Below, piece after piece: positions 3,904 through 39,897 of a DNA stretch of 40,000 nucleotides. This DNA comes from Clostridium sp. OF09-36. Lineage in GTDB: Bacteria; Bacillota; Clostridia; Lachnospirales; Lachnospiraceae. Numbering within the stretch: position 1 is the first letter of the stretch; each line of letters starts with the position of its first letter. The position numbers and the translations under genes were made by a program. The notes beneath the pieces were generated by a model, which saw nothing but the letters and a program-made list of their open reading frames with translations, did no database searches and was not told the DNA's origin. Location: positions 1-40,000 of the forward strand of contig NZ_QUMD01000005.1 of NCBI RefSeq assembly GCF_003481985.1, given 5' to 3'.

Positions 3904-4941
3904 ATGGGCAACACAAGAGAAGTAAACGGAAATGCGGCGATTCTTGCGAGAATCAATAAGGGATGGAAACCTAACCGCTATTTAACAAACATGAGCATGG
4001 CTTATTTTGCTGACCCGAAAGACCATGTTGCAACCAGTATTTTTCCGATTTGTCCGGTGGATTTTTCTACCGGATTTTATTATGAATTTCTGAAAGGCGA
4101 CCTTGCAAGAGATAATGTTGCGAGAAAGCCGGCTTTCGGTAAAGTATCACCGGCAAAGATGGGACACACTGATAACAGCTACAAATGCGTTGTAGACCAG
4201 ATTATCGTAGGCGTAGACCAGATTGGAGCCATAAACTATCAGCGTGCAGGAGTACCGGCATCCATCGACCCAAGACGTAGCAAGGTACGTTTTGTATCAG
4301 AACAGCAGTTGCTTCACCTTGATATTTTATTCGCAGAGAGCTTTTTCAAGACAGGAGTTTGGGCGAATGAGTTCACTGGTATTTCATCTGGTACACCGAG
4401 CGGCAGCCAGTTCCTGAAATTCAATGATGCGAATTTCGACCCGGTTAATTTCTTCGATGCAAGAAAGAGAGAAATCAAGCTGGCAGGCAGACGTATGCCG
4501 AATAAGTTAAGCCTCGGCTATGATTCATTCACAGCATTAAAGAATCACCCGGACATCCTGGAGCGTGTGAAGTACACAGGCGGTACGGCAAATCCGGCAA
4601 TCGTAAATGAACAGGTACTTGCACAGGTACTTGGATTTGAGGAAGTAAAGGTCCTGGAGGCAACATACAATGCCGCAGAAGAGGGACAGCCGGACGATAT
4701 GAAGTTTGTATGCGAATCTGATGGAGCATTACTTACATACACAACAAATGCACCGGCTATTGATGAGCCGTCCGCAGGATATATCTTTACATGGGATATG
4801 CTCGGCAACGGAAACTACATGGCAACAGACCAGTTCGAGGGCGAGGGTGGTACTCATTCAGAGTTCATCGAGGGCTTAATGTCTACGGATATGAAGAAAA
4901 CCTCCGATGACCTGGCTTGCTACCTGTCTGCGTGTGTGTAA
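3904..4941 (+). CDS. Major capsid protein
   Basis: 345 aa; strong SD (GAGGAGG); position after scaffold and decoration genes; sequence character of gpE/gpT-type coat proteins. Confidence 0.75.
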   Translation: MGNTREVNGNAAILARINKGWKPNRYLTNMSMAYFADPKDHVATSIFPICPVDFSTGFYYEFLKGDLARDNVARKPAFGKVSPAKMGHTDNSYKCVVDQIIVGVDQIGAINYQRAGVPASIDPRRSKVRFVSEQQLLHLDILFAESFFKTGVWANEFTGISSGTPSGSQFLKFNDANFDPVNFFDARKREIKLAGRRMPNKLSLGYDSFTALKNHPDILERVKYTGGTANPAIVNEQVLAQVLGFEEVKVLEATYNAAEEGQPDDMKFVCESDGALLTYTTNAPAIDEPSAGYIFTWDMLGNGNYMATDQFEGEGGTHSEFIEGLMSTDMKKTSDDLACYLSACV

Positions 4942-13900: not shown

Positions 13901-15333
13901 ATGCATCGTTCCAGACCTTGAAAATCAAGTACGGAAATGGTGCAAGTCTTGATATTGATTCATTCAATCAGTTGCAGGAGGAGTTGCAGGCACAGGTAAG
14001 TTCTTTCAAAGAAACTTATGATAATGCGCTTACAGTAACCCTCACAAACCTTAATTTGCAGTTATCCGAGGGAGCTATCACGCAGGAGCAGTACGATGCG
14101 GCTGTACAGCAGGCTACCGATGGATATTACGCAAACATCAACGATATGGAGGTGAGAGTATCAAGTTTCAATCTGGATACGATAGCAGAGGCTTGGAATG
14201 ATGAGCTTGCCGGTATTATGCCGGATATGGAGGGTAGCGTTTCTGAAAAATTGAACGCTGCTTTACAGACTGCATTATCAGAAAAACCGGATATATCAAG
14301 CTGGACCCAGGAGGATATGATGGGATGGCTTGGACTTGATGATATGACAATAGACACATCAGCTTTTGAAAATATCTATCAGGAGTTGGTGGCAACAGCA
14401 GAAAATATGGCACCGACAGCTAAAGAGGAAATCGTGCAAAGTCTGAAAGAATCCATCCCAACGATGGAGGAAGTCATGGCAGAGTACGGTCCAATTTCCA
14501 ATGAGGCATACGAATCCATAGTAGAGCAATACAAAGAAGCGATGAACAGCTCTTTCGAGAGCGCAGATTTTTCTAGTATTGGCACAACATTAAGCACGAA
14601 AATGAGTGATTCGATTTTGAATACTGATACGTCAGCATTCTCAACAGCATTTGCGGAGCTTGGAACGAAATCTGGAACCGATGCGGCAACAGCTTTCCAG
14701 GCTGCGGATTACTCCGGTGTAGGTGCGGCTGTTGGAAGTGGAATCAGCAGTGCTATTACAAATGCTGATATGGCACAGATTAACAGTGCGGTAGATGCAC
14801 TGAAATCAAATACGGATAGTTCCGTAAACAGTGCGTTTGGCGCAGGCGTTTCTACAACAATGCCGGTAAGCGTAACCCTGGACTATTCACTTGTGAATCC
14901 GACAAAGACGTTCACGATAGGCGGTGGAGGAAGTGGAAGTACAACACTTACTGTATCGGCTCATGCAAGCGGCGGTTATGTAAATGACAAGCAGTTGTCA
15001 TGGGTTGGAGAAGAGGGACCGGAGGCAATCATACCTTTAGTTCCCGGCAGAAGAAACAGAGCGCTGGAACTGTACAAAGAGGTTGGGGACATTCTCGGAG
15101 TACAGGCAAATGCGAATGGTAACATCATCGGAGAGGCAGCACCTTTAGGTGGAGGAAGTGGAAGTACAACCATCGGAAGTACAGCAACAGAAATGTTTGC
15201 TTACAGCTCCATTTCGGACTTTTTATCTCTCAATGATAATTTGTTAGCCGAAGCGATTAGAAACGGAGCCACAGGCTATAACGGATTCACAGAGGGTACA
15301 GAAAGCGATTCAGATACGCAGATGAACCTTTGA
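10933..15333 (+). CDS. Tail tape measure protein (probably continues into 15330-15557)
   Basis: 1466 aa; helical N-terminal and C-terminal regions; central Gly/Ala-rich hydrophobic block; canonical position. Confidence 0.9.
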   Translation: MNKVKDAADKVKSSTDQMSTSAKKANDEVTKFDRSAQKTQKSLLSWAKEKYSVLLEAKDKISPILSTIKGGLTSFGRKTWSVTMKAVDLATAPIRGVINLLKNPILQVGAVLGVSIGLKDTIDTYKDFEAAISQVKAVSGATGSEFDKLTAKAKEMGATTKFTATQSAEAFNYMAMAGWDSQQMLDGIEGILNLAAASGEDLGTTSDIVTDALTAFGLKASDAAHFSDVLAQSAASANTNVSMMGESFKYVAPIAGAMKYSVEDTSLALGLMANASVKGSMAGTSLKTALANMAAPTDKMATAMKKYGISLTDSNGNMKTLKGVLDNLRSSLGGLSETEKTAAASTIFGKEAMSGMLAIINATESDYNKLAESINNADGAASKMSDTMLDNLEGSITLLQSAMDGVKISFGERLSPYVRGIADWLTEQMPEVEQGLNEMMDWVDSKVDRMKRKFKELSQSDEWKNADFFGKVKLAWDDFIAEPFSEWWHSTGKQKIADIAGDMGTSIGTGLKLGILTLLGVDVSDTLNEGASVGASFAKGFAEGFDTDAIASKLFEGFGNMVKSAGKLLPGGESADLSSIFSAIMLAKIAGPVASLGKGAFSVGKAIFGKDAATGTSLAGSIGSSIIGSAAKGTGLKGLGVTMGMIGNTFGSGATTGAGLIAAGTAGTAGGVAAGATLVSAGIDAYKALKSDDKAEKSAYGESAAWKAGGVAAGAAAGAAIGSIIPGLGTAVGALVGAGVGGIAGWIKGNKVKKEYQDNVEEMQKEAEKAQKVFDATGLSIDKVRFANDDLNDAMNDSSVTAEQLASYIQEDVAKVGKEAFGNIKLSLSEIKDLANKITFADMGDGITKFNEATESAKESLSSLESSVSTMKKENWKVGLGMQLSETDVDDYKTSIDNFVKSAQDYIENSHYEATVALELLTNGEGSTEGLDSMYNNMKSQIEELSGKLSDTVNIALEDGVITLDESKEITNLQEQITEITEKVSKAQEDASFQTLKIKYGNGASLDIDSFNQLQEELQAQVSSFKETYDNALTVTLTNLNLQLSEGAITQEQYDAAVQQATDGYYANINDMEVRVSSFNLDTIAEAWNDELAGIMPDMEGSVSEKLNAALQTALSEKPDISSWTQEDMMGWLGLDDMTIDTSAFENIYQELVATAENMAPTAKEEIVQSLKESIPTMEEVMAEYGPISNEAYESIVEQYKEAMNSSFESADFSSIGTTLSTKMSDSILNTDTSAFSTAFAELGTKSGTDAATAFQAADYSGVGAAVGSGISSAITNADMAQINSAVDALKSNTDSSVNSAFGAGVSTTMPVSVTLDYSLVNPTKTFTIGGGGSGSTTLTVSAHASGGYVNDKQLSWVGEEGPEAIIPLVPGRRNRALELYKEVGDILGVQANANGNIIGEAAPLGGGSGSTTIGSTATEMFAYSSISDFLSLNDNLLAEAIRNGATGYNGFTEGTESDSDTQMNL

Positions 15334-15560: not shown

Positions 15561-16250
15561 ATGGAAATAAAACTGTTTGAAGCGGCTGATAAAAAGAAGT
15601 CGTTTACGTTCTCTTCGTTGCCGGAGAAGATAAGCGGCAGTCTTGGGACGAAGTATCAGACCTATGATATTATCTCCCAGGGTGCCGTAAAGGTGCCAAA
15701 GGGAACAGAAGTGGCGGAAATCTCATGGGATGCCGTTTTCTTCGGACCGGACAGAAAGAATCTGGCGGTTGTGAAAGCGGAAAGTTACCAGAAACCCGAT
15801 AAGTGCATTAAGCAGTTGAGGGAATGGCAGGAAAAGGGAACGGTGCTGAATCTGCTTGTAACAGAAACATGGATTAACATGGATGTTACGATTGATTCAT
15901 TTACACCCGACCCTTTTGGTGCTTATGGAGATGTAAGCTATGGCATTAAATTTTCACAGGCAAAAGACCTGAAAATCTATACAACAAACGAATTGAAAAT
16001 TGCCGCCTTTGTAAAAAAGACAGTTCCGAGAAATGATAACTCAAATAAAGGCTCTTCCTACACGATTGTCAGTGGCGATACGTTGTGGGGGATTGCTTCA
16101 CGAAAACTTGGAAGTGGTACAAAGTGGACGAAGATTTACGATGCAAATGCTTCAACGATTGAGGCGGCAGCCAAGAAACATGGCAAAAGCAGTTCAGACC
16201 ATGGTCATTGGATATGGCCGGGAACAACGCTGTCGATTCCGGCGGCATAG
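15561..16250 (+). CDS. LysM-domain tail protein (XkdP-like)
   Basis: C-terminal LysM motif YTIVSGDTLWGIASRKLGSGTKWTKIYDAN. Confidence 0.8.
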   Translation: MEIKLFEAADKKKSFTFSSLPEKISGSLGTKYQTYDIISQGAVKVPKGTEVAEISWDAVFFGPDRKNLAVVKAESYQKPDKCIKQLREWQEKGTVLNLLVTETWINMDVTIDSFTPDPFGAYGDVSYGIKFSQAKDLKIYTTNELKIAAFVKKTVPRNDNSNKGSSYTIVSGDTLWGIASRKLGSGTKWTKIYDANASTIEAAAKKHGKSSSDHGHWIWPGTTLSIPAA

Positions 16251-20507: not shown

Positions 20508-20891
20508 ATGGCACAGAATGTAATTATTACAAAATCAGCCAGAAAGAAAATGGTACAGGCAAGAGCAGGAGCGATTACACTTCCTAAAATTGTCGGCATG
20601 GCATTTGGCTCTGGAGGAGTAGACAGCGCAGGAAATGTTATTTCTCCGTCTGAAACACAGACAGCACTGAAAAAGGAACTGCTCCGTAAGCCTATCAGCG
20701 GCTATAACTTTATCACAGAAACCACATGCAGATACGAATGCACGCTTGGAGAATCAGAGCTTGCCGGACAGTATATCAGTGAAATTGGGCTGTATGATGC
20801 CAACGGCGATATTGTTTGTATCAAGACCTTTACCAGAAAGGGAAAGGATAACGATATTGAAATGACATACACGCTGGATGATGTTTTCTAA
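20508..20891 (+). CDS. Tail-collar fibre protein domain
   Basis: 127 aa; ITLPKIVGMAFGSGG ... ISEIGLYDANGDIVCIKTF pattern matches phage tail-collar fibre N-terminal domains. Confidence 0.65.
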   Translation: MAQNVIITKSARKKMVQARAGAITLPKIVGMAFGSGGVDSAGNVISPSETQTALKKELLRKPISGYNFITETTCRYECTLGESELAGQYISEIGLYDANGDIVCIKTFTRKGKDNDIEMTYTLDDVF

Positions 20892-21121: not shown

Positions 21122-22339
21122 ATGAGCAAAATTACAGAACCGATGCTGTTGGATAAAACCGGTCAGCAGTTTCTTGGATTGATGGAGAAACAGAACGAAT
21201 TACTCACAGCGATTGCCAGTGGGTACAATTACAAACCGACTTCCATTGCAGATGTGTTTGCAGTGGTTCAGTCAGGAAATGCAAGCCAGGTTTTTAATTA
21301 TGGCGACCAGATTATTTTACCATGGACCGACAAAGCAACCGGAAAAACATATGAGTGTCCGCTTGATGTGGTACATTTTGGAGATGTCACACTTGCGGAT
21401 GGCGAAACTGTACCGGGAATGTTGGTACAGTGGCATTATGCAACGCCTTTTGGCGTGCAGTTCAACCAGTTCCAGGCGTTTAAGTATTGCGAGGAGCAGT
21501 TACCGGCAGGAACCTACAATGTCATTATCGGTGATACCTGGGGAAATAACTGCGTAAAGGGTAAAACATACCAGTTCACGCTTACGAAGCCTGTACCAGC
21601 GAAAGGACAGCTTGCAGGATTATACAGAGCACCGGATGTCAGCCCGAGCGAATGGAAAGTATATTCATTCGAGAGCAATACGGCAACAGACCCTATCGAA
21701 ACTGTAGCGATGGTGGAGGGAACAGGCGGAACCGCCCTTGGTACATTATCTTTCAAACCGACATCGCCATTGAATGGATTGCAGAGCACAGCTTACGGAT
21801 ATAACCGTTGGGCGCAGAGTGCTATGCGTCAGTGGCTTAATTCCGAAGAGGCAAACGGTAAGTGGTGGACACCACAGCACAATTTTGACCGTACACCGGA
21901 CCAGCTCAAAGAAAAGCATGGATTTCTTACCGGATTCGATGAGGAATTTACAAAGAGATTGAAAGCAACGAAAGTATCCACCTGGAAGAACACTCTTACA
22001 GACAATGGAGATACGGACGGTATTGAGGTAACTTACGATAAAGTGTTCCTGCCGAGTTTGGAGGCAATGTCAATCAATCCGCAGAAAGCTGGCGAGGACG
22101 ATGTATGGGAATACTGGAAACGTGCATCCGGTATGGCGGAGAAAATGCAGCAGTACAAGACTTATCCGCAGATTCGTACATTTGCGATTGAGAATCACAC
22201 TTCGCCGCATTACGTCCGCCTGCGCTCGGCTTATCGGGGCGCCTCGCACGGTACGTGGTATGTGTACGCCGATGGTAACGTCAACTACTACAACGCGTAC
22301 TGGGCTGTTCGCTGCGCTCCGGCTTGTTGGCTTTGCTAA
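21122..22339 (+). CDS. DGR target 1: variable receptor-binding (fibre) protein with C-terminal VR
   Basis: The 3' end (22212-22327) matches TR except almost only at TR adenines; C-terminus ...WYVYADGNVNYYNAYWAVRCAPAC is typical of lectin-fold DGR targets. Confidence 0.85.
   Translation: MSKITEPMLLDKTGQQFLGLMEKQNELLTAIASGYNYKPTSIADVFAVVQSGNASQVFNYGDQIILPWTDKATGKTYECPLDVVHFGDVTLADGETVPGMLVQWHYATPFGVQFNQFQAFKYCEEQLPAGTYNVIIGDTWGNNCVKGKTYQFTLTKPVPAKGQLAGLYRAPDVSPSEWKVYSFESNTATDPIETVAMVEGTGGTALGTLSFKPTSPLNGLQSTAYGYNRWAQSAMRQWLNSEEANGKWWTPQHNFDRTPDQLKEKHGFLTGFDEEFTKRLKATKVSTWKNTLTDNGDTDGIEVTYDKVFLPSLEAMSINPQKAGEDDVWEYWKRASGMAEKMQQYKTYPQIRTFAIENHTSPHYVRLRSAYRGASHGTWYVYADGNVNYYNAYWAVRCAPACWLC
22212..22327 (+). 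repeat. DGR variable repeat VR1
   Basis: Gap-free 116-nt alignment with TR 22867-22982; 14 mismatches by hand, 13 at TR adenines. Confidence 0.9.
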
Positions 22340-22358: not shown

Positions 22359-22380
22359 CCCGGCACCCACGGATGCCGGG
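22359..22380 (+). promoter_or_regulatory. GC-rich hairpin 3' of VR1 (DGR target-recognition-type element; also terminator-like)
   Basis: CCCGGCA-CCCACGGA-TGCCGGG followed by ATATTTTTT; 21/22 identical to 37204-37225 downstream of VR2. Confidence 0.75.
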
Positions 22381-22405: not shown

Positions 22406-22831
22406 ATGGCAGTACCAGAGGGAGAAAGACGACCATGTAAGATGGACGTATTCATGCACGAGTTGGACCTTGTGACATATACGCTCCAGATTACAAGAAA
22501 TGAGAAAATATTTCTTCCAGAATATAAAGGCTGCGTTACGGACGATATTGTGGAAACCGCAAAGAATATTTACATAGATTCATGGGACGCAAACAATATC
22601 AGAGTACAGAAACGTGGCGATAGCAACTGGGAGGAGAGGAGCCGTCTACAGTTAAGAGCCGCAAGAAATTGCAACAGGCTTTTAGCACTCATAGGCATCG
22701 CAAAATCCTCGTTTCACCTGAAATCAAAGCGTGTCAAATACTGGGTTGGTAAAGTATTAAAAATCCGGGGAATGATACGAAACTGGAATGAAAGCGATAG
22801 TGAACGCTATGCCGTAAAACAACGGAAATAG
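22406..22831 (+). CDS. avd: DGR accessory variability determinant (Avd-like)
   Basis: ~141 aa, basic, helical; lies between target and TR; ATG 22406 follows AAAGGAGG (track start 22373 is inside the hairpin). Confidence 0.7.
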   Translation: MAVPEGERRPCKMDVFMHELDLVTYTLQITRNEKIFLPEYKGCVTDDIVETAKNIYIDSWDANNIRVQKRGDSNWEERSRLQLRAARNCNRLLALIGIAKSSFHLKSKRVKYWVGKVLKIRGMIRNWNESDSERYAVKQRK

Positions 22832-22866
22832 TGTTTATTATACAGGGATGAGGACTGAAACGCAGA

Positions 22867-22982
22867 ACGTCCGCCTGCGCTCGGCTAATCGGGGCAACTC
22901 GAACAATACGTGGTATGTGAACTCCGATGGTAACGTCAACAACAACAACGCGAACTGGGCTAATCGCTGCGCTCCGGATTGT
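22867..22982 (+). repeat. DGR template repeat (TR)
   Basis: Adenine-rich (29 A in 116 nt; 12 AAC/AAT codons in the VR frame); matches VR1 and VR2; immediately upstream of the RT. Confidence 0.9.
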
Positions 22983-23083: not shown

Positions 23084-24205
23084 ATGCAGTCAGCCCTTGA
23101 AAGGACTGGTACTGCTATATACGTTATGGACAATAATTCAAATTACGTGGATAGAGAAGAGATAATCGGTTTCGATGCCTTGTACGATTCAATGATGAAA
23201 AGTAAGAAAGGGGTTACCTGGAAAGGTTCGGTTGCTCATTATGTGCTTAACAGCATGGAGGAAACTTACAAATTGAGCGAAGAGCTTGAAAAGGGAACCT
23301 ATAAAGCAAGGCCGACAACACAATTTAAGATAACATCACCGAAACCCAGGGACATAATAAGTACTTGCTTTCGGGATAGGGTATATCAGCGGAGTTTGAA
23401 TGATAACGCTCTATACCCGATTATGACAAAACAGCTCATTCGTGATAATTGGGCTTGCCAGAAAGGAAAGGGAACGGACGATGCAAGGGATAGAATGAAA
23501 ATATTTCTGCAAAGGATGTACCGGAAATATGGCACAGATTTCTATGGTTTACAATGCGACATTCATGGATATTACCCGAATATGAGGCATGACCTTACAA
23601 AAGAATTGTTCCGGGATAAACTGGACGATTGGCTGTATGAGCAGACTGCAACTGTTCTTGACGGACAGTACGCAGGGGATGTGGGATATAATCCTGGCAG
23701 CCAAATGATACAGATAGCCGGTATTACATTTCTAAGTGAGTACGACCATATGATGAGGGAGCAGACCGAAGCCGAGGATTACGGCAGATATATGGATGAT
23801 TCAACACTGTTCCATCCATCAAAAGAATATCTGGAAAACCTAAAATTGATAAATGAGAAATACCTTGCAAGCAGGGGAATGGAGTACAACTCGAAGAAAA
23901 CGAAAGTATTCAGCATTAAAGAGGGCTTTACATTCCTGGGATTCAAGTATCGGTTGACGGATACTGGAAAAGTTATCATGACAGTCAGCTCGGAGAAAGT
24001 CAAAGAAAGGCGCAGAAAGCTCCGTAAGCTGGTGAGGAAAGCCAAAAGAGGCGAAATCACAAAGGCGAAAGTAGATGACTGTTATCAAGCATGGAGGAGC
24101 CATGCGAGCAAAGGAAATTCCTTTCACCTTATACGCCGCATGGACAAATTTTACAAGAGTTTATGGAATGACCAAGAAACGGAGGTAACTGACAATGAGA
24201 ATTAA
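23084..24205 (+). CDS. DGR reverse transcriptase
   Basis: RT motifs RDRVYQRSL, QKGKGT, GYNPGSQ (DGR-type SQ motif), YMDD, FLGFKY; start uncertain (ATG 23084 or 23126, neither has a clear SD). Confidence 0.85.
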   Translation: MQSALERTGTAIYVMDNNSNYVDREEIIGFDALYDSMMKSKKGVTWKGSVAHYVLNSMEETYKLSEELEKGTYKARPTTQFKITSPKPRDIISTCFRDRVYQRSLNDNALYPIMTKQLIRDNWACQKGKGTDDARDRMKIFLQRMYRKYGTDFYGLQCDIHGYYPNMRHDLTKELFRDKLDDWLYEQTATVLDGQYAGDVGYNPGSQMIQIAGITFLSEYDHMMREQTEAEDYGRYMDDSTLFHPSKEYLENLKLINEKYLASRGMEYNSKKTKVFSIKEGFTFLGFKYRLTDTGKVIMTVSSEKVKERRRKLRKLVRKAKRGEITKAKVDDCYQAWRSHASKGNSFHLIRRMDKFYKSLWNDQETEVTDNEN

Positions 24206-25243: not shown

Positions 25244-25594
25244 GTGAGGAAAAGAAGAGTTACTAAAAATAAAAGTAAAGCCGCCATTCTTTGGATGTGG
25301 GAGCATACCAAAATGATTGTGAACTGCCTGTCGGTATTGTATGTGCTGAACTGGCTGTATTCCCTGGTCGTGATTGTGGTTGCGATAAAGGAAACCGGGC
25401 AATTCAGCTACCTAGATACTCTTATAAGCGAAACGAATGAAACGTTCCGAATTGTGGTGGGGGCGAACATAGTCAAAGCAGGTGTTGAAAACATATTCAA
25501 ATACAACGATTTTGGCGGCAAGGGTTCCCGGTATATGGGGACCAGTAACAGTGAAAATGAAAACATAGAAAATGTGGAGGACAACAGAGGATGA
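25244..25594 (+). CDS. Membrane protein (holin-like candidate)
   Basis: GTG start after GGAGGT; hydrophobic segment IVNCLSVLYVLNWLYSLVVIVVAI. Confidence 0.5.
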   Translation: MRKRRVTKNKSKAAILWMWEHTKMIVNCLSVLYVLNWLYSLVVIVVAIKETGQFSYLDTLISETNETFRIVVGANIVKAGVENIFKYNDFGGKGSRYMGTSNSENENIENVEDNRG

Positions 25595-25950
25595 ATGACA
25601 TTATTTTTGAAGCATTAAAGTTACTGATTATGGTTTGCGTGGCTGTAATTGCCAGATACGTTATTCCTTGGCTTAAAAGCAGAATCGAGCAGGATAAGAT
25701 GGCAGCCATCGAAAAGATGGTTACACAGGCCGTACTATACGCGCAGCAGGTACTCACATCAAAGAGTGGAGCCGAGAAAAAAGCTATTGTTACTGACCTG
25801 CTAAAAGAAATGCTGACAGCAAAGAATATTTCCATTACTGATGAACAGCTTAACATTTTGATTGAAGCGGCTGTCAAGCAGATGAAGATGGAGGAAAACG
25901 CAGGAATCGTAATCGAAGCAGTAGACGAACAGACAACAAAAACTGAATAA
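25591..25950 (+). CDS. Holin (LL-H / phi-LC3-type)
   Basis: N-terminal TM plus ...AQQVLTSKSGAEKKAIV...ISITDEQLNILIEAAVKQM pattern; directly upstream of the endolysin. Confidence 0.7.
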   Translation: MNDIIFEALKLLIMVCVAVIARYVIPWLKSRIEQDKMAAIEKMVTQAVLYAQQVLTSKSGAEKKAIVTDLLKEMLTAKNISITDEQLNILIEAAVKQMKMEENAGIVIEAVDEQTTKTE

Positions 25951-25968
25951 AAGACAGGAGATGATACC

Positions 25969-27477
25969 ATGTCGCTCAAAGGAAATAGCAATGAAGAGCG
26001 CATCTGGAATTTTCTGATAAGCAAGGGGCTTAATCCATTTGGTGTTGCAGGTTTGATGGGAAATCTGGACCGAGAAAGTGGGTTGAGCCCTATTAACTTG
26101 CAGAATACCTACGAGAAAATACTGGGATTTACGGATGATACCTACACAACATCCGTAGACAATGGCGATTATCAGAATTTCGTACATGACAAAGCAGGAT
26201 ACGGCATTGCGCAGTGGACGTATTGGAGCAGAAAACAAAACCTGCAGAAGTATGCGCAGAAAAAGGGAGCCTCCATCGGTGACCTGGAAATGCAACTCGA
26301 ATTTCTTATACAGGAATTGAGCAGCAGCTATAAATCTGTGCTGAACGTGCTGAAAACAGCAACGAGCGTTTCCCAGGCATCAAATGCCGTACTGCTTAAT
26401 TTTGAAAAACCGGCAAACCAGGGAAGTTCCGTACAAAAAGAAAGAGCCGAATGCGGACAGAAATTTTATGACAAATATGCGTCTGGAAAAGGAGGAACAT
26501 CTATCATGGGAAAGACGATTACAACAGGATGGCTTTCAGCCGTTATCAATGGAATTAAAATCAAATCTGATTTGAGATGCAACCTGGATAATTACAGCAG
26601 CAGGTCAAGCAGAGATGCTTCATACGTGACTATGCATTACACAGGAAATAATAAGGACACAGCAAGGGCGAATGCAAACTATTTCGGTGGAGCCGGAAGA
26701 AATGCATCCGCCCATTTGTTTGTGGATGATACGGAAATCTACCAGAGTGTACCGTTAAATTCTGTAGCATGGCATTGTGGAGCGCAGACATATAAACACG
26801 CATATTGCAGAAATGCAAACAGTATCGGTATTGAGATGTGCTGTACCGCCGGAAATTATAAGATTTCCGAAAAGACTAAACAGAACGCCGCATATCTGTG
26901 CGCGTATATCTGTAAAATGCTTGGCATCAGTGCAGGCGAAGTTGACAAGTATGTACTCCGTCACTGGGATGTTACAGGAAAGAATTGCCCGGCACAGATG
27001 GCAGGAAGTAACAATGCTGAATGGGTAGCATTCAAAAATATGGTAAAATCCATCCTTAATGGTGGAGGAACCGGCAACAGCACTTCCGGTGGAACGCAGA
27101 CAAAGCAGATGTACAGAGTGCGTAAAACCTGGGCTGATGCAGCGAGTCAGAAAGGTGCATTTACGAGCCTGGAAAACGCAAAAAAATGTGCTGACGAAAA
27201 TAAGGGTTATAGCGTATTTGATTCCAACGGAAACAAGGTATATCCGGCATCGGCAAATACCGGAACGTCATGCAACTATGTGGTAAAAATCACAGTTGAT
27301 GGATTGAGATACAGGGACAATCCTGGAACCAGTGGAACAAAGGTACTGGGATATTTGAAAAAGAATTACAAATATACAGTAGTGGAAGAACGCACTGTAA
27401 ATGGCGTAAAATGGGGCAAGCTGAAATCTGGCGCAGGATGGTTTTCGTTACAGTCAGAATATTCTGTACGCTGTTAA
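25969..27477 (+). CDS. Multidomain endolysin (lysozyme-like N-terminus + MurNAc-L-Ala amidase + SH3-like wall-binding C-terminus)
   Basis: GLMGNLDRESGL..YGIAQWTYWSRK (phage lysozyme type); AHLFVDD..AWHCG..IGIEMC..RHWDVTGKNCP (amidase_2); C-terminal VKWGKLKSGAGW. Confidence 0.85.
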   Translation: MSLKGNSNEERIWNFLISKGLNPFGVAGLMGNLDRESGLSPINLQNTYEKILGFTDDTYTTSVDNGDYQNFVHDKAGYGIAQWTYWSRKQNLQKYAQKKGASIGDLEMQLEFLIQELSSSYKSVLNVLKTATSVSQASNAVLLNFEKPANQGSSVQKERAECGQKFYDKYASGKGGTSIMGKTITTGWLSAVINGIKIKSDLRCNLDNYSSRSSRDASYVTMHYTGNNKDTARANANYFGGAGRNASAHLFVDDTEIYQSVPLNSVAWHCGAQTYKHAYCRNANSIGIEMCCTAGNYKISEKTKQNAAYLCAYICKMLGISAGEVDKYVLRHWDVTGKNCPAQMAGSNNAEWVAFKNMVKSILNGGGTGNSTSGGTQTKQMYRVRKTWADAASQKGAFTSLENAKKCADENKGYSVFDSNGNKVYPASANTGTSCNYVVKITVDGLRYRDNPGTSGTKVLGYLKKNYKYTVVEERTVNGVKWGKLKSGAGWFSLQSEYSVRC

Positions 27478-27494: not shown

Positions 27495-27542
27495 GAACGG
27501 ACCTCTCTATCACACAAAATGTGGTGGAGGGGTTCTTTTTTT
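27495..27542 (+). terminator. Possible weak terminator after the endolysin gene
   Basis: Imperfect stem (GAAC..CCTC / GAGG.GTTC) followed by a T7 run; large loop. Confidence 0.3.
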
Positions 27543-27603
27543 ATACTCGAAAATATTATGCATATATGGTAGACTGTAGAAAAAGCCAGGAGGTCTAAGA
27601 GGA

Positions 27604-28536
27604 ATGAGAAAAAGACATTTTTTATTATTGGCGTTTGCCATAACTGGTCTTGCCCTGAACGGATGTTCGGGGGGGGGTACAACGGATGTTGATACCTCGC
27701 AGACCGAGAGCGTAGCGGAAAGCGAAAGTAGCGAAGTAGAGCCGACATCGACGGTAGAAATGCCGGACGGATTCACAAAAATAACGCAAGAACAGGCTGA
27801 ATCATGCCCGGATGGGGATGGAGCGGTCAAAGCTCTGGAAACGGCTTTACAGTCGATTGGAGTAAAGAAAGTTTCTGATTGCTATTGGGGGAATTACAAG
27901 ACAGCCGGAAGTGTTGTCGATATGGAGGCTTACCTTATCACAGATGCACAAAACCTTATCGTCAGATGCCAGTACCTGAATAATAACTGGACGGTTGTTT
28001 ATATCACTGACAGCGAGAACGGACATTTGTATTATCCTACAACCGGTAAGGATGCGTATAACTACACAACAGGGGAATTGATAAAGCAGGAAGAAACAAC
28101 AGAGCCTGCGGCGGTAGAGGACACGCAGGAGGAATCCAAAGAGCCTGAAACGCAGGAAGTACCACACCGGGATGGAATGTACGGAATCAGTGACAAGAGC
28201 TGTCACGATATAGATGCAACCTTTTCCAGGGATAAAGTGCGGAATGATGTTACTGGAAAGTGGAGAGTGTCTGCCATTTCTGCGGATGTGCAGATGGTGG
28301 AATACGCAAAAGATTACTACCAATGGAAATTTACGAACGATGATGAGATTCACTGCATTGTGAATTTTTATAATAATACAACAACGAAGATACAGTATCT
28401 TAGCGGAAACCTGTTCGTTACGGTCCATGAGTATGTAAAGGGAGAGGAGCACGATGCTAACCTGATGTTCAGTGGAACAGTCCTCCAGGATTTTATAGTT
28501 TATCTCGATAATGGAGATATTGAGCAGATACAATAA
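27604..28536 (+). CDS. Lipoprotein (moron) with a G9 tract after the lipobox
   Basis: MRKRHFLLLAFAITGLALNGC signal/lipobox; acidic linker; AGGAGG SD; last gene before the non-coding region. Confidence 0.75.
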   Translation: MRKRHFLLLAFAITGLALNGCSGGGTTDVDTSQTESVAESESSEVEPTSTVEMPDGFTKITQEQAESCPDGDGAVKALETALQSIGVKKVSDCYWGNYKTAGSVVDMEAYLITDAQNLIVRCQYLNNNWTVVYITDSENGHLYYPTTGKDAYNYTTGELIKQEETTEPAAVEDTQEESKEPETQEVPHRDGMYGISDKSCHDIDATFSRDKVRNDVTGKWRVSAISADVQMVEYAKDYYQWKFTNDDEIHCIVNFYNNTTTKIQYLSGNLFVTVHEYVKGEEHDANLMFSGTVLQDFIVYLDNGDIEQIQ

Positions 28537-28541
28537 CAGAG

Positions 28542-28571
28542 TTATCCCCATAGTTATTCACATTATCCACA
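28542..28571 (+). promoter_or_regulatory. Three tandem DnaA-box-like 9-mers
   Basis: TTATCCCCA (28542-50), TTATTCACA (28554-62), TTATCCACA (28563-71; perfect consensus), all in the same orientation. Confidence 0.6.
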
Positions 28572-28602
28572 AAATATTGAGTTGATAAAATAATCGTTTG
28601 GT

Positions 28603-28830
28603 AACCGACCGATACCGAACGGTTATTTTTTTATGCGTTCGGAAAATTTCGGTTTATTTTTTGAGTTTGTACCAGGTTCAAACCTGGACTTCAAAATTTG
28701 TACCACCAGTACAGAAAACCGAAAAACCGAACGGTTATTTTCTTACAATCCTTGAAAGCCGCATAAAATAAGGATTTTCTGATGATTCATTTCTAAAATA
28801 AAAACCGAATTACCGAACGGTTATTTTCTG
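28603..28830 (+). repeat. Three dispersed hairpin-iteron units containing the exact 16-mer ACCGAACGGTTATTTT
   Basis: 16-mer at 28614-29, 28726-41 and 28812-27. Each unit is AACCG-N10-12-CGGTT plus a T-run. Further ACCGAA/TTCGG copies at 28636-28660 and 28831-28837. Confidence 0.8.
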
Positions 28831-28844
28831 AACCGAAAAAACCC

Positions 28845-28880
28845 GATACAGATACAGAAACAGATAAAGATACAGATATA
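28845..28880 (+). repeat. Tandem hexamer array (GATACA-like x6)
   Basis: GATACA GATACA GAAACA GATAAA GATACA GATATA read directly, followed by AT-rich DNA. Confidence 0.8.
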
Positions 28881-28940
28881 TAAATATATTTATGTTCATT
28901 TGTACCTCAAAAACTTTTTCAAAAATTGTAAATAAGCATA

Positions 28941-28996
28941 TTGACACTACTAACCTACGTGTTATTATAATGTCAACAACTCAATAAAACGAGTTG
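28941..28996 (+). promoter_or_regulatory. Early promoter module P1 (-35 TTGACA, TGt-TATTAT) plus downstream inverted repeat
   Basis: TTGACA 28941-46, 16-nt spacer, TATTAT 28963-68 preceded by TG; inverted repeat CAACTC-N8-GAGTTG 28977-96; module repeated at 31840 and 34252. Confidence 0.7.
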
Positions 28997-29026
28997 GAAT
29001 AAACCAAGGCAGGAGGTTAAGAGTAC

Positions 29027-29185
29027 ATGGAGGAATTTGAAATGACACAGACAGAGTTGATTTTATTTTTAGAAACATTAGCAGAAAACGTGGAGCTGAA
29101 AGCAAAGACCGGAGAAGATGCCGCAGGCATCATACGAAAGAAAATTGAGGTATTAAAAAAGGAAACCCCGACACCTGGTAAGTAA
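29027..29185 (+). CDS. Small early protein (52 aa, below the track threshold)
   Basis: AGGAGG 29011-16 then ATG 29027; reads MEEFEMTQTELILFLETLAENVELKAKTGEDAAGIIRKKIEVLKKETPTPGK. Confidence 0.5.
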   Translation: MEEFEMTQTELILFLETLAENVELKAKTGEDAAGIIRKKIEVLKKETPTPGK

Positions 29186-29205
29186 GAGGGTTTCCAATCC
29201 GTAAT

Positions 29206-29250
29206 AAGGGTAAGGCGGTTCCTGCCACCGCCAAGCCTTACCCTTTTATT
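29206..29250 (+). terminator. Strong intrinsic terminator after the first early ORF
   Basis: 11-bp stem AAGGGTAAGGC / GCCTTACCCTT (inner GGCGG/CCGCC pairing is an alternative) followed by TTTATT. Confidence 0.65.
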
Positions 29251-29300
29251 ATAGCAGGGCGGTGGAAGAAATCAAGAGCGGAATGCAGGAGGACATAGAG

Positions 29301-29789
29301 ATGGCAGCAACCAAAGAGCAGGAACGGAAAGCGTTGGAAAAAATCAAAAAAATCGTGACAGACCTTGGAGAGGATAGCTATATCAGCATGGCATTTGAGG
29401 GATGCTTTGAAATTGCCGAGGGAAACATTGAAAATGATTTCGGATGCAGCATGAAACAGAGAGCCGAAAGTTCGGCGGCAGAGGCAGCAAAATATAAAGA
29501 AATGTACGAAAGTGCAGTGAAAGATTATGAAGCAGAGAAGAGAACTGTCGAAGAACTTGAACAGAAAGTTCTCACGTTGGAAGAGGCTGGCGCAATAAAA
29601 GCTATTCTTATTGATAGCAAGACGGAGGCGATAAGAAGAACAGAAGAATCCGCCAGAAAAATTGTTGAATTTGCGGACAATCCGGATAGCGCAGAATTTA
29701 AGCAGGCTGTGCAGGACAACAGACATAACAAACAGTTGGTTGAGGAAAGCGAAAAACTTATCCAGAGGATTCTTGATACTATGTTTTAG
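29301..29789 (+). CDS. Hypothetical coiled-coil early protein
   Basis: ATG 29301 is 7 nt after AGGAGGA (track GTG 29262 overlaps the terminator). Confidence 0.55.
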   Translation: MAATKEQERKALEKIKKIVTDLGEDSYISMAFEGCFEIAEGNIENDFGCSMKQRAESSAAEAAKYKEMYESAVKDYEAEKRTVEELEQKVLTLEEAGAIKAILIDSKTEAIRRTEESARKIVEFADNPDSAEFKQAVQDNRHNKQLVEESEKLIQRILDTMF

Positions 29790-29803
29790 GAGGAGCAGAG
29801 CTG

Positions 29804-30514
29804 ATGAAAAAGTACAGAGTAAACGAGAGCGAACATTTCAACCTGTATTCGATGCACGATAAGCTGAAATGCATCGAAATTGACATGCAGGAGGCACCGG
29901 CACACACATATACAGACGAGCAGTGGGATGAGGTCCAGGAAAGAATCAGCGAAGTCGAGGAGCTTATGGAAAAGGCGTATTGCGTGGGCGCATTGGTGGA
30001 CTGGCCAACCTTAAAGAGAATCAGGGAGATTAAAGAGGAACGGCAGTTGATGAGATACAACGCTGCATGGAACAGGGAGCATCGGAGAAAGATGCAGCAA
30101 TGGCATTTGAATTATAAAACAGTTACCCGCCCCGGAGGTACGAGGGCAGAAAGTGAGGACATACAAATGATGGCGAATATTGTAGCAATGTTTCATTCAG
30201 CACTGCATATGGATGATGGATACGTGAATCATATCGCAATAGTCCAGGACGTTGATGGATACCACAATCATTTTCTTTATGATGAGGACAAGGGAAAAGG
30301 AGCCGCAGGGACAGGACCATTCAAAACAATAGAGGATGCGAAACAGGATGTCATAGCACATTACCCTGATGCGAAAGAAAAGAAAATCTCCCCGGCAGGG
30401 TACAGGTATTACAGCACACAGCGTCCAATCATGCCGGGAGGATACCCGAAGCCAAAAATAACGAAGTCCTGGAGATTGAGAACTTCGACAATAAAAAGTT
30501 TGTTGAGGAAGTAG
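29804..30514 (+). CDS. Hypothetical early protein; probably the first part of a longer ORF 29804-30839 broken at two A-runs
   Basis: AGGAGCAGAG SD. After A5 (30454-58) the -1 frame reads NNEVLEIENFDNKKFVEEVGCQAWGYIEYKKPL..., whereas the frame-0 tail is basic junk. Confidence 0.55.
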   Translation: MKKYRVNESEHFNLYSMHDKLKCIEIDMQEAPAHTYTDEQWDEVQERISEVEELMEKAYCVGALVDWPTLKRIREIKEERQLMRYNAAWNREHRRKMQQWHLNYKTVTRPGGTRAESEDIQMMANIVAMFHSALHMDDGYVNHIAIVQDVDGYHNHFLYDEDKGKGAAGTGPFKTIEDAKQDVIAHYPDAKEKKISPAGYRYYSTQRPIMPGGYPKPKITKSWRLRTSTIKSLLRK

Positions 30515-33897: not shown

Positions 33898-34218
33898 GTG
33901 GATATTATAGAAAAATTCAAGCAGTATATGCTCGATAATGGTATCACATACGAGGAGGCGGCAAAACGTATCGGATGGACCAGGCAGAATCTGTGGTACA
34001 AACTGAATGTGGGAGTATCACCAACCTATGGAACAATCAAAAAAATTGCGGACGGTCTTGGTTTTGAAATTAAACTGACGCAGGATGGAAAGCCGGATAT
34101 AACAAAGCTGGAAGATATAGCGGCTGATACAGAGGATGATTCTGCAAGATTCATAATTATTGAGCACGTCATAAATTCTATGGGATATTCTCTCGAAATA
34201 GTACCACCTGAAAAGTAA
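33898..34218 (+). CDS. Helix-turn-helix (XRE-like) DNA-binding protein
   Basis: GITYEEAAKRIGWTRQNLWYKLN...TYGTIKKIADGLG is an HTH pattern; GTG start after GGAGGTG. Confidence 0.6.
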   Translation: MDIIEKFKQYMLDNGITYEEAAKRIGWTRQNLWYKLNVGVSPTYGTIKKIADGLGFEIKLTQDGKPDITKLEDIAADTEDDSARFIIIEHVINSMGYSLEIVPPEK

Positions 34219-34251: not shown

Positions 34252-34307
34252 TTGACACCTACCTACTACGTGTTAGTATATACTCAAACAACTCAATATA
34301 GTGAGTT
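34252..34307 (+). promoter_or_regulatory. Early promoter module P3
   Basis: TTGACA 34252-57, same spacer as P2, TAGTAT 34274-79; inverted repeat AACTCA-N6-TGAGTT 34290-34307. Confidence 0.7.
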
Positions 34308-34328
34308 ACAACACAAGGAGGAATGAAG

Positions 34329-34579: not shown

Positions 34580-34837
34580 ATGAGCAAAGAAAAAATTGAA
34601 ATGACAGAGAAACAGTTCGAGGAATTATGCAAAGCAGTATATCCGCACCTGAAAGCAATTCAGGAGGCATTAAAAGGGAATGGCGAGGAAATGTCAGCGA
34701 GCATATCAGTTGGCAGTGATGGATACCTTAACTTCCATCCTTACAATTCAGATTGGGAGCTTTCAAAGTTCAAAGATTCACAGGCAACGATGAAATATGA
34801 GCACAGAACAATCTTAAAAATGGAGGAGGACGAATAA
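34580..34837 (+). CDS. Small hypothetical protein
   Basis: 85 aa; TAATG-coupled to the next gene. Confidence 0.5.
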   Translation: MSKEKIEMTEKQFEELCKAVYPHLKAIQEALKGNGEEMSASISVGSDGYLNFHPYNSDWELSKFKDSQATMKYEHRTILKMEEDE

Positions 34838-35760
34838 TGGAGATTCAGTTCTATACAATCAGCGAGGATATGGCAAGAGCCGCCAACGATGCCAATTCAA
34901 TGAGTGATTATAAGCAGGGCAGCGCAACAGAGGAATACCGCAAGCGAGTGGAGAGTGTCTATGCGGTTGTTGAGAAAATCAAACAGAAGAGACCGAACCT
35001 TGCTGAAAAGGCAGAGAGAATGGCAGGGAGATACAGCAAAAAGCTGGCGGAATACTACAATTCCTACTACAGAAACGAAGCGAGCTGTCCGTCAGTTCTG
35101 ATTTCTGGAGCCGGTAACTTCCCGGTTAAGAAAAAGAACAAGCAGAACAGCCGCAGGGATTCACTCATGCAGGAGTGGAACAGCCTGGAATCCTATGCAA
35201 AGAAGATTACAAATCTGCTCACAATGAACCAGCCGATTTTATCCGGGGACGCACAGGCCATTGAGATGTTGGAGGAAAAGCTGGAAAGCCTTACAGAGCT
35301 TCAGGACAGAATGAAAGCGGTCAATGCATATTGGAGAAAGCACAAAACAGTCGAGGGATGCCCGGAACTTTCCGTTTCACAGCAGGAAGAATTGAAAAAG
35401 GCTATGTCAGAAAGTTGGCATTTGAGCGATGCACCATTCGCAGGGTATCAGCTTTCAAACAATAATGCAAAAATCAAAAATACCAAGGCAAGACTGGAAA
35501 GACTGAAAAAGGCAAAAGAGGCAGGAACTAAGGAAACAGGGAACGATTTCTTCAAAGTGGTAGAAAATACAGACCTTATGAGATTACAGCTTTTCTTTGA
35601 TGGAAAACCGGATGAAGAAACAAGGGATATTGTAAAAAAACATGGTTTCAGATGGTCACCGAAGAATGGATGCTGGCAGAGGCAGCTTACAACGAATGGC
35701 AAATATGCTTTGAAAGAAGTTATCACAGAATTACAGAAAACGTCTGCTTCGGGCGTATAG
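34837..35760 (+). CDS. DUF3560-like protein
   Basis: C-terminus FFDGKPDEETRDIVKKHGFRWSPKNGCWQRQ is the pattern I associate with DUF3560 of plasmids and phages. Confidence 0.6.
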   Translation: MEIQFYTISEDMARAANDANSMSDYKQGSATEEYRKRVESVYAVVEKIKQKRPNLAEKAERMAGRYSKKLAEYYNSYYRNEASCPSVLISGAGNFPVKKKNKQNSRRDSLMQEWNSLESYAKKITNLLTMNQPILSGDAQAIEMLEEKLESLTELQDRMKAVNAYWRKHKTVEGCPELSVSQQEELKKAMSESWHLSDAPFAGYQLSNNNAKIKNTKARLERLKKAKEAGTKETGNDFFKVVENTDLMRLQLFFDGKPDEETRDIVKKHGFRWSPKNGCWQRQLTTNGKYALKEVITELQKTSASGV

Positions 35761-36316: not shown

Positions 36317-37183
36317 ATGAGTATCAATTCAATCAGATTAAGTGCATACGGATTCCGTATGGAGGCAGTAGGCAGCAAGAAGTTTATCAAGAGGGAAAGA
36401 GATGCGTTTCTGGAATTTGCGGCAGGAAGAGTAAACGAAACGGCACAGAAATTAGCAGAGGCAGTATGCGCAGAACCGTTGCATCCATTTTGCAACTGCG
36501 CCATGCCTGGTGTGGATTCGGACCAGGAGCATGAAAAGTCAAAAGATACCGGAAAAGAGCTGAACATCACACATAAATACAAGAAAACATTTACGCTGGA
36601 TGAATTAAGAGCACTTATCAGAAACGGAGAAATCCAGAACCATGTTTCGGTTGGAGATACAATCTGGATTATGTTTGACGGAAAAGAGGTTCCATACGAT
36701 GTTATCGGCTTTGATGTGGAGGAACTTGCGGACAAAACGCTTGACCATAGCATGACAATCCAGGCTCATGTAGCGATTGAGGCGAGAGAGTTCGATACAA
36801 AAGGAGATTACGGCAGTAATGTATGGGCGGATTCCGAGCTGAGAGAATATTTACAGAGTGATGAGTTCAAAGAAAGATTTGCAGACCTCATTCCTTACCT
36901 GGCAAAAGTGAAGAAAAACAACAGCAATGGAGAACAGACAGAAGATTTGTTTTTCCTACTCTCAAAAGAGGAGTTCGACCCGGAGGAAACACCATACGAA
37001 TTTTATGAAAATAAGGCGAACAGAGTGAAATTCACAGAGGATGGCAACACCTGCCGACACTGGACCCGCTCGGCTCTTCGGGGCACCTCGTACCTTACGT
37101 GGTATGTGTACTCCGATGGTTACGTCCACGGCTACACCGCGTACTGGGCGTTTCGCTGCGCTCCGGCTTGTACCATTGCATAG
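36317..37183 (+). CDS. DGR target 2: remote variable protein, shorter paralog of the fibre target
   Basis: ATG 36317 after AGGAGGA; C-terminal VR matches TR; shares the GDxI..Y.V.GFD..LAD and N.WA.S.LR..L.S motifs with 21122-22339. Confidence 0.8.
   Translation: MSINSIRLSAYGFRMEAVGSKKFIKRERDAFLEFAAGRVNETAQKLAEAVCAEPLHPFCNCAMPGVDSDQEHEKSKDTGKELNITHKYKKTFTLDELRALIRNGEIQNHVSVGDTIWIMFDGKEVPYDVIGFDVEELADKTLDHSMTIQAHVAIEAREFDTKGDYGSNVWADSELREYLQSDEFKERFADLIPYLAKVKKNNSNGEQTEDLFFLLSKEEFDPEETPYEFYENKANRVKFTEDGNTCRHWTRSALRGTSYLTWYVYSDGYVHGYTAYWAFRCAPACTIA
37067..37171 (+). repeat. DGR variable repeat VR2
   Basis: Gap-free 105-nt alignment with TR 22878-22982; 18 mismatches by hand, 17 at TR adenines. 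Confidence 0.85.
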
Positions 37184-37203
37184 AAATCTATCAATCTTCT
37201 CAT

Positions 37204-37225
37204 CCCGGCACCCATGGATGCCGGG
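37204..37225 (+). promoter_or_regulatory. GC-rich hairpin 3' of VR2
   Basis: CCCGGCA-CCCATGGA-TGCCGGG, 32 nt after the end of VR2; near-identical to 22359-22380. Confidence 0.75.
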
Positions 37226-39483: not shown

Positions 39484-39897
39484 ATGAATAAAGCAATCGA
39501 GATAGGCCGCCTTACGCGCGACCCGGAAGTTAGATATTCGCAGGGGAACAATACAGCAGTAGCAAGATACACTATTGCGGTAGACAGAAAATTCAAAAGA
39601 GAGGGAGAACAAACAGCAGATTTCATCCCTTGCGTAGTGTTTGGAAAACAGGCGGAGTTTGCCGAGAAGTATTTCAGAAAAGGAACAAAAGTTGTTATTT
39701 CTGGAAGAATCACAACAGGAAGTTATACAAACAAGGATGGTCAGAAAATATATACCACTGAAATAACAGTGGAGGAGCAGGAGTTCGCAGAGAGCAAAGG
39801 AAGTAGCGAAGCACAGGGAACCGGTCAGATGCCAACTCCGAATGGCGATGGTTTTATGAGCGTCCCAGATGATGATACCGGCTTACCGTTCAATTAG
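39484..39897 (+). CDS. ssb: Single-stranded DNA-binding protein
   Basis: OB-fold N-terminus IGRLTRDPEVRY...FIPCVVFGKQAE; acidic tip DDDTGLPF at the C-terminus. Confidence 0.9.
   Translation: MNKAIEIGRLTRDPEVRYSQGNNTAVARYTIAVDRKFKREGEQTADFIPCVVFGKQAEFAEKYFRKGTKVVISGRITTGSYTNKDGQKIYTTEITVEEQEFAESKGSSEAQGTGQMPTPNGDGFMSVPDDDTGLPFN

Follow-up and report, generated by a model that had tools for sequence, protein, structure and literature searches.

Phage diversity-generating retroelements (DGRs) are usually understood as devices for switching between host receptors. The present study deals with the gene T2 (36317-37183), which appears to be rewritten by such an element from a distance of about 14 kb in a prophage of Clostridium sp. 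OF09-36; the whole stretch of DNA that was analysed, the first 40,000 nucleotides of contig NZ_QUMD01000005.1 (assembly GCF_003481985.1), is called the window. Remote second targets in prophages are already known. Many phage-associated DGRs with a non-adjacent target less than 50 kb away, presumably within the same prophage, were reported by Wu et al. in 2018 (PMC5758913). In the Roseburia phage Shimadzu, the second variable repeat (VR2) belongs to a gene of unknown function, and both variable repeats were found experimentally to vary (10.1101/575076). Large and small targets with the domain DUF6273 occur in the Faecalibacterium phages Lelie and CP11, where their function was described as "not entirely clear" (PMC11792537). 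In FP_Toutatis, the second DUF6273 target is located 17.5 kb from the template repeat (TR) and is a core gene, being present in 98.8% of 173 genomes, with the DGR present in 68% (10.1101/2024.10.15.618418). According to the Toutatis record, gp24 is an early-region gene located upstream of the genes for the replication initiator and for antiterminator Q, and a small early-region DUF6273 case is, in this way, already on record.

The locus in the window resembles the cases of Wu et al. in having one TR, a target adjacent to the reverse transcriptase (RT), another target kilobases away and, apart from the rare bases considered below, A-to-N differences only; unlike that survey, which gave no function or module context, it can be assigned a placement near replication genes and the gene of the single-stranded DNA-binding protein (SSB) that is conserved across clades (PMC5758913). 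It is also similar to Shimadzu, another Lachnospiraceae prophage, in which VR1 belongs to a tail gene preceding the RT and VR2 (orf43/44) is found elsewhere, but the activity of Shimadzu was established from read heterogeneity and that of T2 from the comparison of genomes and cluster members (Cornuault et al., 10.1101/575076; ISME J 2020). No detectable sequence match to T2 was found for Shimadzu in the phage collection searched. As in Toutatis, Lelie and CP11, T2 is the small DUF6273 partner of a large one. Toutatis gp24 was considered as a sequence homologue of T2 and rejected, the two showing no similarity beyond the VR motif; unlike that of T2, the VR of gp24 is not at the extreme C-terminus, and the phage backbone and host family also differ. 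Two DUF6273 targets per TR, with the second (tgt2) being a single globular domain with a C-terminal VR, are likewise known from the gut phages nd4 and nd12 (Baykov et al. 2023), but there, unlike T2, both targets are inside the DGR cassette (PMC10743442). Because this class of targets is already documented, the value of the present case lies in its conserved context and population evidence and not in the discovery of a remote target: what is new is the population-scale evidence of activity for the T2 family and the cross-clade conservation of its placement.

With a probability of about 0.85, it may be concluded from the sequence comparisons given below that the single DGR of this phage has, in the open reading frame (ORF) 36317-37183, a second target that is genuine, non-adjacent and active at present. 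The elements concerned are as follows.

36317-37183, plus strand: T2, remote DGR target gene, 288 aa, ORF with the ribosome-binding site (RBS) AGGAGG
37067-37171, plus strand: VR2, TR-templated variable repeat, gap-free alignment to TR 22878-22982
~22861-22982, plus strand: TR; the part aligned to VR2 is 22878-22982, and homology to VR1 begins earlier, at ~22861-22868
21122-22339, plus strand: T1, the target next to the DGR, a 405-aa DUF6273 protein whose gene closes the baseplate/fibre module
22223-22327, plus strand: VR1 in T1, defined by TR alignment
22406-22831, plus strand: Avd accessory gene, phrog_3206 "Avd protein of DGR", E 7.6e-9
23084-24205, plus strand: DGR reverse transcriptase, Pfam RVT_1 1.8e-10, phrog_1423 E 8e-74

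Within the T2 region, TR 22878-22982 aligns best without gaps at 37067-37171, where 87 out of 105 bases agree. Seventeen of the 18 mismatches fall on TR adenines, of which the segment contains 28, and the hypergeometric probability of at least 17 out of 18 mismatches being on A is 2.1e-11; the sole exception is T>G at TR 22961 (window 37150), which changes GCT to GCG and is synonymous. VR2 is on the strand of the TR and begins 14,085 nt beyond its end. The coordinates, the mismatch counts, the ORF, the strand and the distance of 14.1 kb had been given in an earlier note on this DNA made from its letters alone, and recomputation returned identical values and correct coordinates. The adjacent VR1 differs from the TR at 14 positions (13 at adenines); between VR1 and VR2 there are likewise 14 differences, and 12 of these coincide with TR adenines. 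T2 homologues begin at the same Met as the ORF.

A complete DGR, comprising Avd, TR and RT, is predicted in the window, and it is the only one there. The RT was assigned to DGRs on the basis of family profiles, motifs and the adjoining TR and Avd; its catalytic motif is intact (YMDD at residue 236), and a SQ-containing motif is also present. The mechanically called ORF of Avd begins at 22373, but 22406 is the likely start since an RBS precedes that ATG; the protein is weakly similar to the Avd of Toutatis. NCBIfam gave no match for T1, T2 or Avd. The TR translated in the VR frame reads RSANRGNSNNTWYVNSDGNVNNNNANWANRCAPDC and contains 12 AAY codons, and such a run of AAY codons is the classical design of a DGR. 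Its sequence is identical in six related genomes. No third target was found in the window and in the related phage genome MT835491, where a further copy of a VR, initiation of mutagenic homing (IMH) element or hairpin and a third paralogue were looked for. As to minor observations, in VR1 (22268) and in VR2 (37150), a single T>G departs from the TR at a base other than adenine, and MT835491 keeps the TR base at both positions; rare non-A changes similar to these were described for other gut-phage DGRs (PMC10743442). Upstream of T1, the region 20508-20891 encodes a 127-aa protein whose similarity to tail-collar/tail-fibre proteins (phrog_1780) is confined to their N-terminal ~110 residues; between it and T1 there is an ORF of 67 aa. 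The anchor of the fibre and its DGR-diversified binding module therefore seem to be made as two polypeptides.

Ongoing diversification is best seen by comparison with MT835491, an unannotated GenBank sequence of 59.5 kb from human faeces, which is 98.9% identical to positions 1-37952 of the window and has an identical TR. The differences between the two T2 genes are distributed very unevenly.

36317-37053, plus strand, 737 nt: 2 differences
37054-37056, plus strand, 3 nt: 3 differences
37067-37171, plus strand, VR2, 105 nt: 17 differences, 16 at TR adenines

The triplet 37054-37056, which precedes the part of VR2 homologous to the TR by 11 nt, is CCG here and TTC in MT835491, resulting in a change of Arg to Ser. 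This R/S polymorphism recurs in database variants (TCRHW vs TCSHW), although it is outside the TR homology and is not adenine-templated.

The same picture is obtained at the population level. Protein clusters of the T2 family at 90% identity in a public protein database contain 9373, 1972, 868 and 725 different sequences. When 45 full-length members were aligned, 16 out of 18 high-entropy columns were situated at residues 254-279, on codons that contain adenines in the TR, and the framework outside the variable columns, including the motif APAC, is essentially invariant; lengths differ by one or two codons inside an AAC run. Seven DNA copies demonstrated the same variation pattern, with the IMH block and hairpin conserved. 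Judging from these data, VR2 is an active DGR target, and no result obtained here speaks against this. In two IMG/VR contigs, 3300045988_053231 and 3300045988_025050, VR2 is identical and VR1 is different, which indicates that the two targets are rewritten independently, in separate events, and bears out the earlier suggestion of independent diversification from one TR. No obvious convergence of VR1 and VR2 within a genome, which might occur in the case of a common ligand, was noticed in the small sample of six genomes.

Polymorphism of one or two additional codons occurs in the AAC-AAC-AAC-AAC run of relatives, both in VR2 (~37127-37138) and in VR1 (~22281), and some database homologues (P0025, P0028, P0033 and P0072) are frameshifted inside the VR. 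These length changes and frameshifts could be the result of slippage in cDNA synthesis or of the assembly of mixed populations.

Both targets share sequence elements that may mark them for homing.

37153-37171, plus strand: IMH-like GC-rich 3' end of VR2, TCGCTGCGCTCCGGCTTGT, identical in VR1
37204-37225, plus strand: hairpin CCCGGCA-CCCATGGA-TGCCGGG, putative DGR target-recognition element, 33 nt after VR2
22359-22380, plus strand: VR1 hairpin, 32 nt after VR1 (20-mer at 22360-22379)

The 19-nt GC-rich block TCGCTGCGCTCCGGNTTGT has three matches in the window, namely the ends of VR1, TR and VR2, and the TR copy shows a fixed single-base difference, A instead of C at 22978. As a consequence, the block encodes APAC, invariant across the 45 homologues, and the TR encodes APDC; such a never-varying C-vs-A difference between the VRs and TR is what would be anticipated for an IMH/IMH* pair. 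The 20-mer CCGGCACCCAYGGATGCCGG is present in the window only downstream of VR1 and VR2, with 0.01 matches expected by chance. Its region folds as a GC-rich stem-loop with a 7-bp stem and 8-nt loop (or 7+2 bp and a 3-nt loop), which is absent at the TR and conserved in relatives. In related clades, hairpins are likewise carried by both targets of one phage, the remote and the adjacent, with differing 10-bp stems and the same 4-nt CGCY loop, so the structure is conserved without conservation of the sequence, in line with the rules established for BPP-1. In the phage BPP-1, IMH and a downstream GC-rich hairpin were shown by Guo et al. in 2011 to be sufficient for targeting a gene, with the stem structure rather than its sequence being important, a spacing of 4-34 bp and a 4-nt GRNA loop (PMC3240598). 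The system considered here is similar to Mtd and the DGR of BPP-1 in its C-terminal VR with a GC-rich IMH at the 3' end, the variant copy in the TR and the GC-rich hairpin found within 4-34 bp past the VR and missing at the TR; unlike BPP-1, the loop of the T2 hairpin is not GRNA, and T2 is outside the tail module (PMC3240598).

The variation pattern was observed in the present sequences, and the enzymology is taken from the paradigm provided by BPP-1, a phage of Bordetella. According to this scheme, the TR RNA would be reverse-transcribed with adenine-specific misincorporation, and the resulting cDNA would replace VR2 in trans, 14 kb away; homing would be directed by the cis elements common to VR1 and VR2 and not to the TR, i.e., the GC-rich 3' IMH block and the downstream hairpin. 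T2 itself would be a free-standing DUF6273 ligand-binding module, in which 12 AAY codons and 4 other adenine-containing codons would give a hypervariable C-terminal surface, and its gene would be packed into an operon with replication-type genes.

Homologues of T2 were found in 51 IMG/VR loci forming three tiers by identity and length: those of about 95% identity, those of about 51% identity over the full length including the N-terminus, and short forms of 205-215 aa with about 50% identity, which are essentially the DUF6273 domain alone. SSB is encoded 2-5.5 kb downstream of the homologue in 38 of the 51 loci, the remainder being mostly truncated; in a single locus, an RT is present within 10 kb of the homologue. 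When remote targets were paired with TRs on contigs also found by the RT search, the remote VR matched the RT-adjacent TR in all seven contig pairs, with mismatches almost all at adenines and distances of about 13-14 kb, 23.5 kb and 8 kb between target and TR. For the clade with 51% identity, the TR was predicted as a 46-mer by turning each variable VR2 column into A; an exact copy of this 46-mer occurs in 22 contigs, and in nine of these the same strand bears the homologue at a distance of 15.4-15.9 kb. Hairpins follow all of the remote homologue targets. In a locus of the short-form clade, which has a different backbone, a tyrosine integrase and repressor, early genes and an SSB-like gene precede the T2 homologue, and the homologue is followed by a replication initiator, ParA and ParB, SSB and terminase. 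Lachnospira eligens and an uncultured Clostridium metagenome-assembled genome are among the hosts carrying homologues.

It thus seems, from gene order in these contigs, that a small remote DUF6273 target in a replication-type block near SSB is conserved across at least four related clades. A survey of related phages had been proposed in the earlier note, and it revealed the same kind of remote target, near SSB, in three further clades. The recurrence of a small, DGR-remote target in the replication module across clades means that it is not an accident of this genome. In addition, T2 is very abundant, small and easily expressed and belongs to phages of culturable Lachnospiraceae such as Lachnospira eligens, which makes it a tractable case for studying non-tail DGR targets.

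A more distant homologue, with 38% identity, is encoded at 4232-4870 of MT835477.1, a phage scaffold of 84.7 kb. This scaffold contains no TR-like copy and no RT related to that of the window (tblastn, E<=1e-4, a search that reaches the less divergent RTs). The gene may be an orphan target, and in this respect it is comparable with the Toutatisvirus genomes that keep targets without a DGR.

The T2 protein consists of a clade-specific N-terminus (residues 1-85) and a DUF6273 domain (residues ~88-288) with the VR at the C-terminus. Pfam DUF6273 was recognised at residues 155-287 with E 5.5e-12 and in T1 with E 1.2e-14. BLASTP aligned T1 and T2 over the C-terminal part with E 6e-15 and gave a weak second segment (E 7e-5) over the GDxI...YDVIGFD region, corresponding to residues 86-153 of T2 and 35-107 of T1; hhalign gave a probability of 99.2% over the C-terminal 123 columns. 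Residues 1-85 have no match elsewhere in the genome and are confined to the own clade of T2 and the clade with 51% identity, and the search of residues 1-90 against 1.84 billion representative proteins returned only the own family and coiled-coil noise, with no informative fusions. Neither a signal peptide nor a transmembrane segment was detected in T2 (the maximum 19-residue Kyte-Doolittle mean is 0.67). These results fully agree with the description of T2 as a paralogue smaller than the adjacent target, having an N-terminus of its own and lacking a signal peptide. In Pfam, PHROGs and NCBIfam, no domain besides DUF6273 was detected and no virion-attachment domain was recognisable. T2 differs from tail fibres and Mtd-like receptor-binding proteins in that its gene is outside the tail module and an attachment domain was not detected, and it is not a tentaclin because it has no immunoglobulin domains and its VR is C-terminal.

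In the AlphaFold2 model, the core of T2 (residues 88-250) is confident; residues 1-85, modelled as one helix followed by a disordered linker, have low confidence, and so does the VR, as would be expected of a hypervariable region. Foldseek search of the PDB with T2 retrieved only 9qa6, an IgA peptidase of Thomasclavelia ramosa, and did not recover Mtd and TvpA. The same 9qa6 was the single weak match in the sequence search of solved structures, and its N-terminal domain was annotated as DUF6273 by its authors (PMC12402451). Structural matches in BFVD are phage DUF6273 proteins, some of them labelled as tail-collar fibre or receptor-binding protein (RBP). DUF6273 was described as C-type-lectin-like (PMC10743442). 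Of the two checks that had been suggested earlier, the comparison with 21122-22339 brought out the paralogy of T1 and T2 at the sequence level, and the structure prediction did not directly reveal a C-type-lectin fold.

The genome context is best followed on the map of MT835491. The left part contains genes of serine integrase, RecT, exonuclease, a DnaC-like loader and ParB; then come terminase, portal, a myovirus-type baseplate, T1 with the DGR, holin, endolysin and a strong terminator; and the right part is a block of ~13 kb with about 30 small plus-strand genes extending up to the right end of the prophage, including those of helix-turn-helix (HTH) proteins, a DarA_C-like protein, a PHROG "primase", T2 and SSB. 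The corresponding features of the window are given below.

27499-27535: strong terminator after the endolysin gene
genes at 33898 and 38292: HTH proteins
34252-34279, plus strand: nearest sigma-70-like promoter match upstream of T2, TTGACA-16-TAGTAT with TG, consensus scan only
34837-35760: primase-like gene, PHROG "primase" 5e-91, DUF3560 match sub-threshold
39484-39897: SSB

With the primase-like gene on one side and SSB on the other, T2 is situated about 4.7 kb from the end of the prophage and is separated by 16 nt from the preceding gene; from the gene at 34323 to that at 36317, gaps do not exceed 17 nt or the genes overlap. Between 34252-34279 and T2, the plus strand has no terminator-like sites other than a weak one at 35082. 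No RNA genes were detected in the window by Rfam and tRNA scans. The neighbours of T2 had been listed earlier as small early-type genes rather than virion genes; HTH, SSB and replication-type genes agree with this, but the DUF3560 similarity of 34837-35760 remained below the threshold.

On the basis of the gene position, the 16-nt gap and the consensus promoter match, it is plausible that T2 is a non-structural, early-expressed protein. In our opinion, T2 can tentatively be regarded as a soluble evolvable binder that would be made together with early or replication genes and act against a variable molecule of the host or of a competitor phage in the infected or lysogenic cell, although the chance of this is somewhat below even. 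This role is thought to be more likely than that of a stoichiometric tail component. A related idea, that the small DUF6273 target is a DGR-diversified intracellular protein, made with the early or replication genes, whose binding evolves to follow changes in a host factor, in a defence protein or in a protein of a competing phage, is rather unlikely. If true, it would extend phage DGR diversification from virion receptor binding to intracellular conflict, and the conserved neighbourhood of SSB and the replication initiator in several backbones would reflect co-regulation with early functions. In any case, a highly diversified second target kept in replication-gene blocks of several gut-phage lineages fits poorly into the view of DGRs as receptor-switching devices.

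Several points weigh against the interpretation of T2 as a soluble, early-made binder. To our knowledge, all experimentally characterised phage DGR targets are virion surface proteins. DUF6273 domains occur in proteins labelled as tail fibre, RBP or Hoc-like, T2 is paralogous to the tail-module target T1, and Foldseek search of the PDB did not directly recover a C-type-lectin fold. The block is situated between the lysis genes and the right end of the prophage, so the term "early" is not secure in this clade; such a position suits an early operon of a circular genome and lysogeny-expressed accessory genes alike. A further point is the RBP role that was guessed for Toutatis gp24 by its authors (10.1101/2024.10.15.618418).

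The main rival reading, real though rather doubtful, is that T2 serves on the virion as a second protein for receptor binding or adhesion, either Mtd-like or a decoration, which would be encoded outside the tail module and be added to the particle once synthesised. Besides the guess made for gp24, the place of T1, the paralogue of T2, at the end of the baseplate/fibre module and the tail-collar fibre and RBP labels among the BFVD neighbours are consistent with such a role, and the separate 127-aa fibre anchor (20508-20891) means that binding modules could dock non-covalently, perhaps to this anchor. However, the gene keeps its place among replication genes in four clades or more and on different backbones, T2 is tightly packed with upstream replication-type genes and has no attachment domain that could be found, and the short homologues, essentially the DUF6273 domain alone, argue in the same direction.

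It is improbable that T2 is a lysogeny-expressed accessory ("moron") protein benefiting the host as a superinfection sensor or excluder or as a released lectin. The block does lie between the terminator 27499-27535 and the prophage right end and has its own sigma-70-like promoter matches, and a DGR-diversified DUF6273 protein of Mushuvirus was reported to be expressed and secreted in lysogeny (preprint 10.64898/2026.05.08.723808), but T2 has no signal peptide, and in the short-form clade and Toutatis the gene belongs to the classical early operon, with the repressor on one side of it and the replication initiator on the other.

The two last explanations are effectively excluded. That the T2 block is a separate mobile element, a satellite or tandem prophage, with the DGR acting across elements, is very improbable: the block follows a strong terminator and has its own HTH regulators and replication-type genes, but the same layout and size of ~59-60 kb recur in independent assemblies, and the short-form locus described above (L035) and Toutatis have the homologue between the integrase/repressor and terminase of a single phage. 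Least credible of all is that VR2 has ceased to be diversified and is only left over from some former duplication or retrohoming, a fate that the earlier note had tied to a lack of population variation, since VR2 varies in the relative, clusters and DNA copies alike, with 17 differences from a 98.9%-identical genome and thousands of variants, and its IMH and hairpin elements are conserved.

Some other genes of the window deserve mention. A 236-aa protein encoded at 29804-30514, in the same block as T2, has a short, weak match to DarA_C (defence against restriction) with E 5e-5, below the Pfam cut-off, and this match was recorded for its orthologue on a near-identical contig (L120); a possible anti-restriction function is suggested by this similarity. 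At 27500-29800 the coding strand is ambiguous, with 27604-28536 on the plus strand competing with 27847-28551 on the minus strand and 29262-29789 (plus) with 29238-29726 (minus), and no family match was obtained for any of these ORFs. Minus-strand genes at 27.3-29.7 kb were considered as a lysogeny switch, and this idea was dropped since the gene caller picks the plus strand on the near-identical contig.

Two lysin-type genes are present. One of them, 25969-27477, encodes a 502-aa two-domain endolysin and follows the holin gene (25591-25950), and the other, 15561-16250, is endolysin-like, lies inside the tail module and is probably a tail-associated lysin. In MT835491.1, beyond the part covered by the window, a radical-SAM-like protein is encoded at 13941-14903, just upstream of the terminase.

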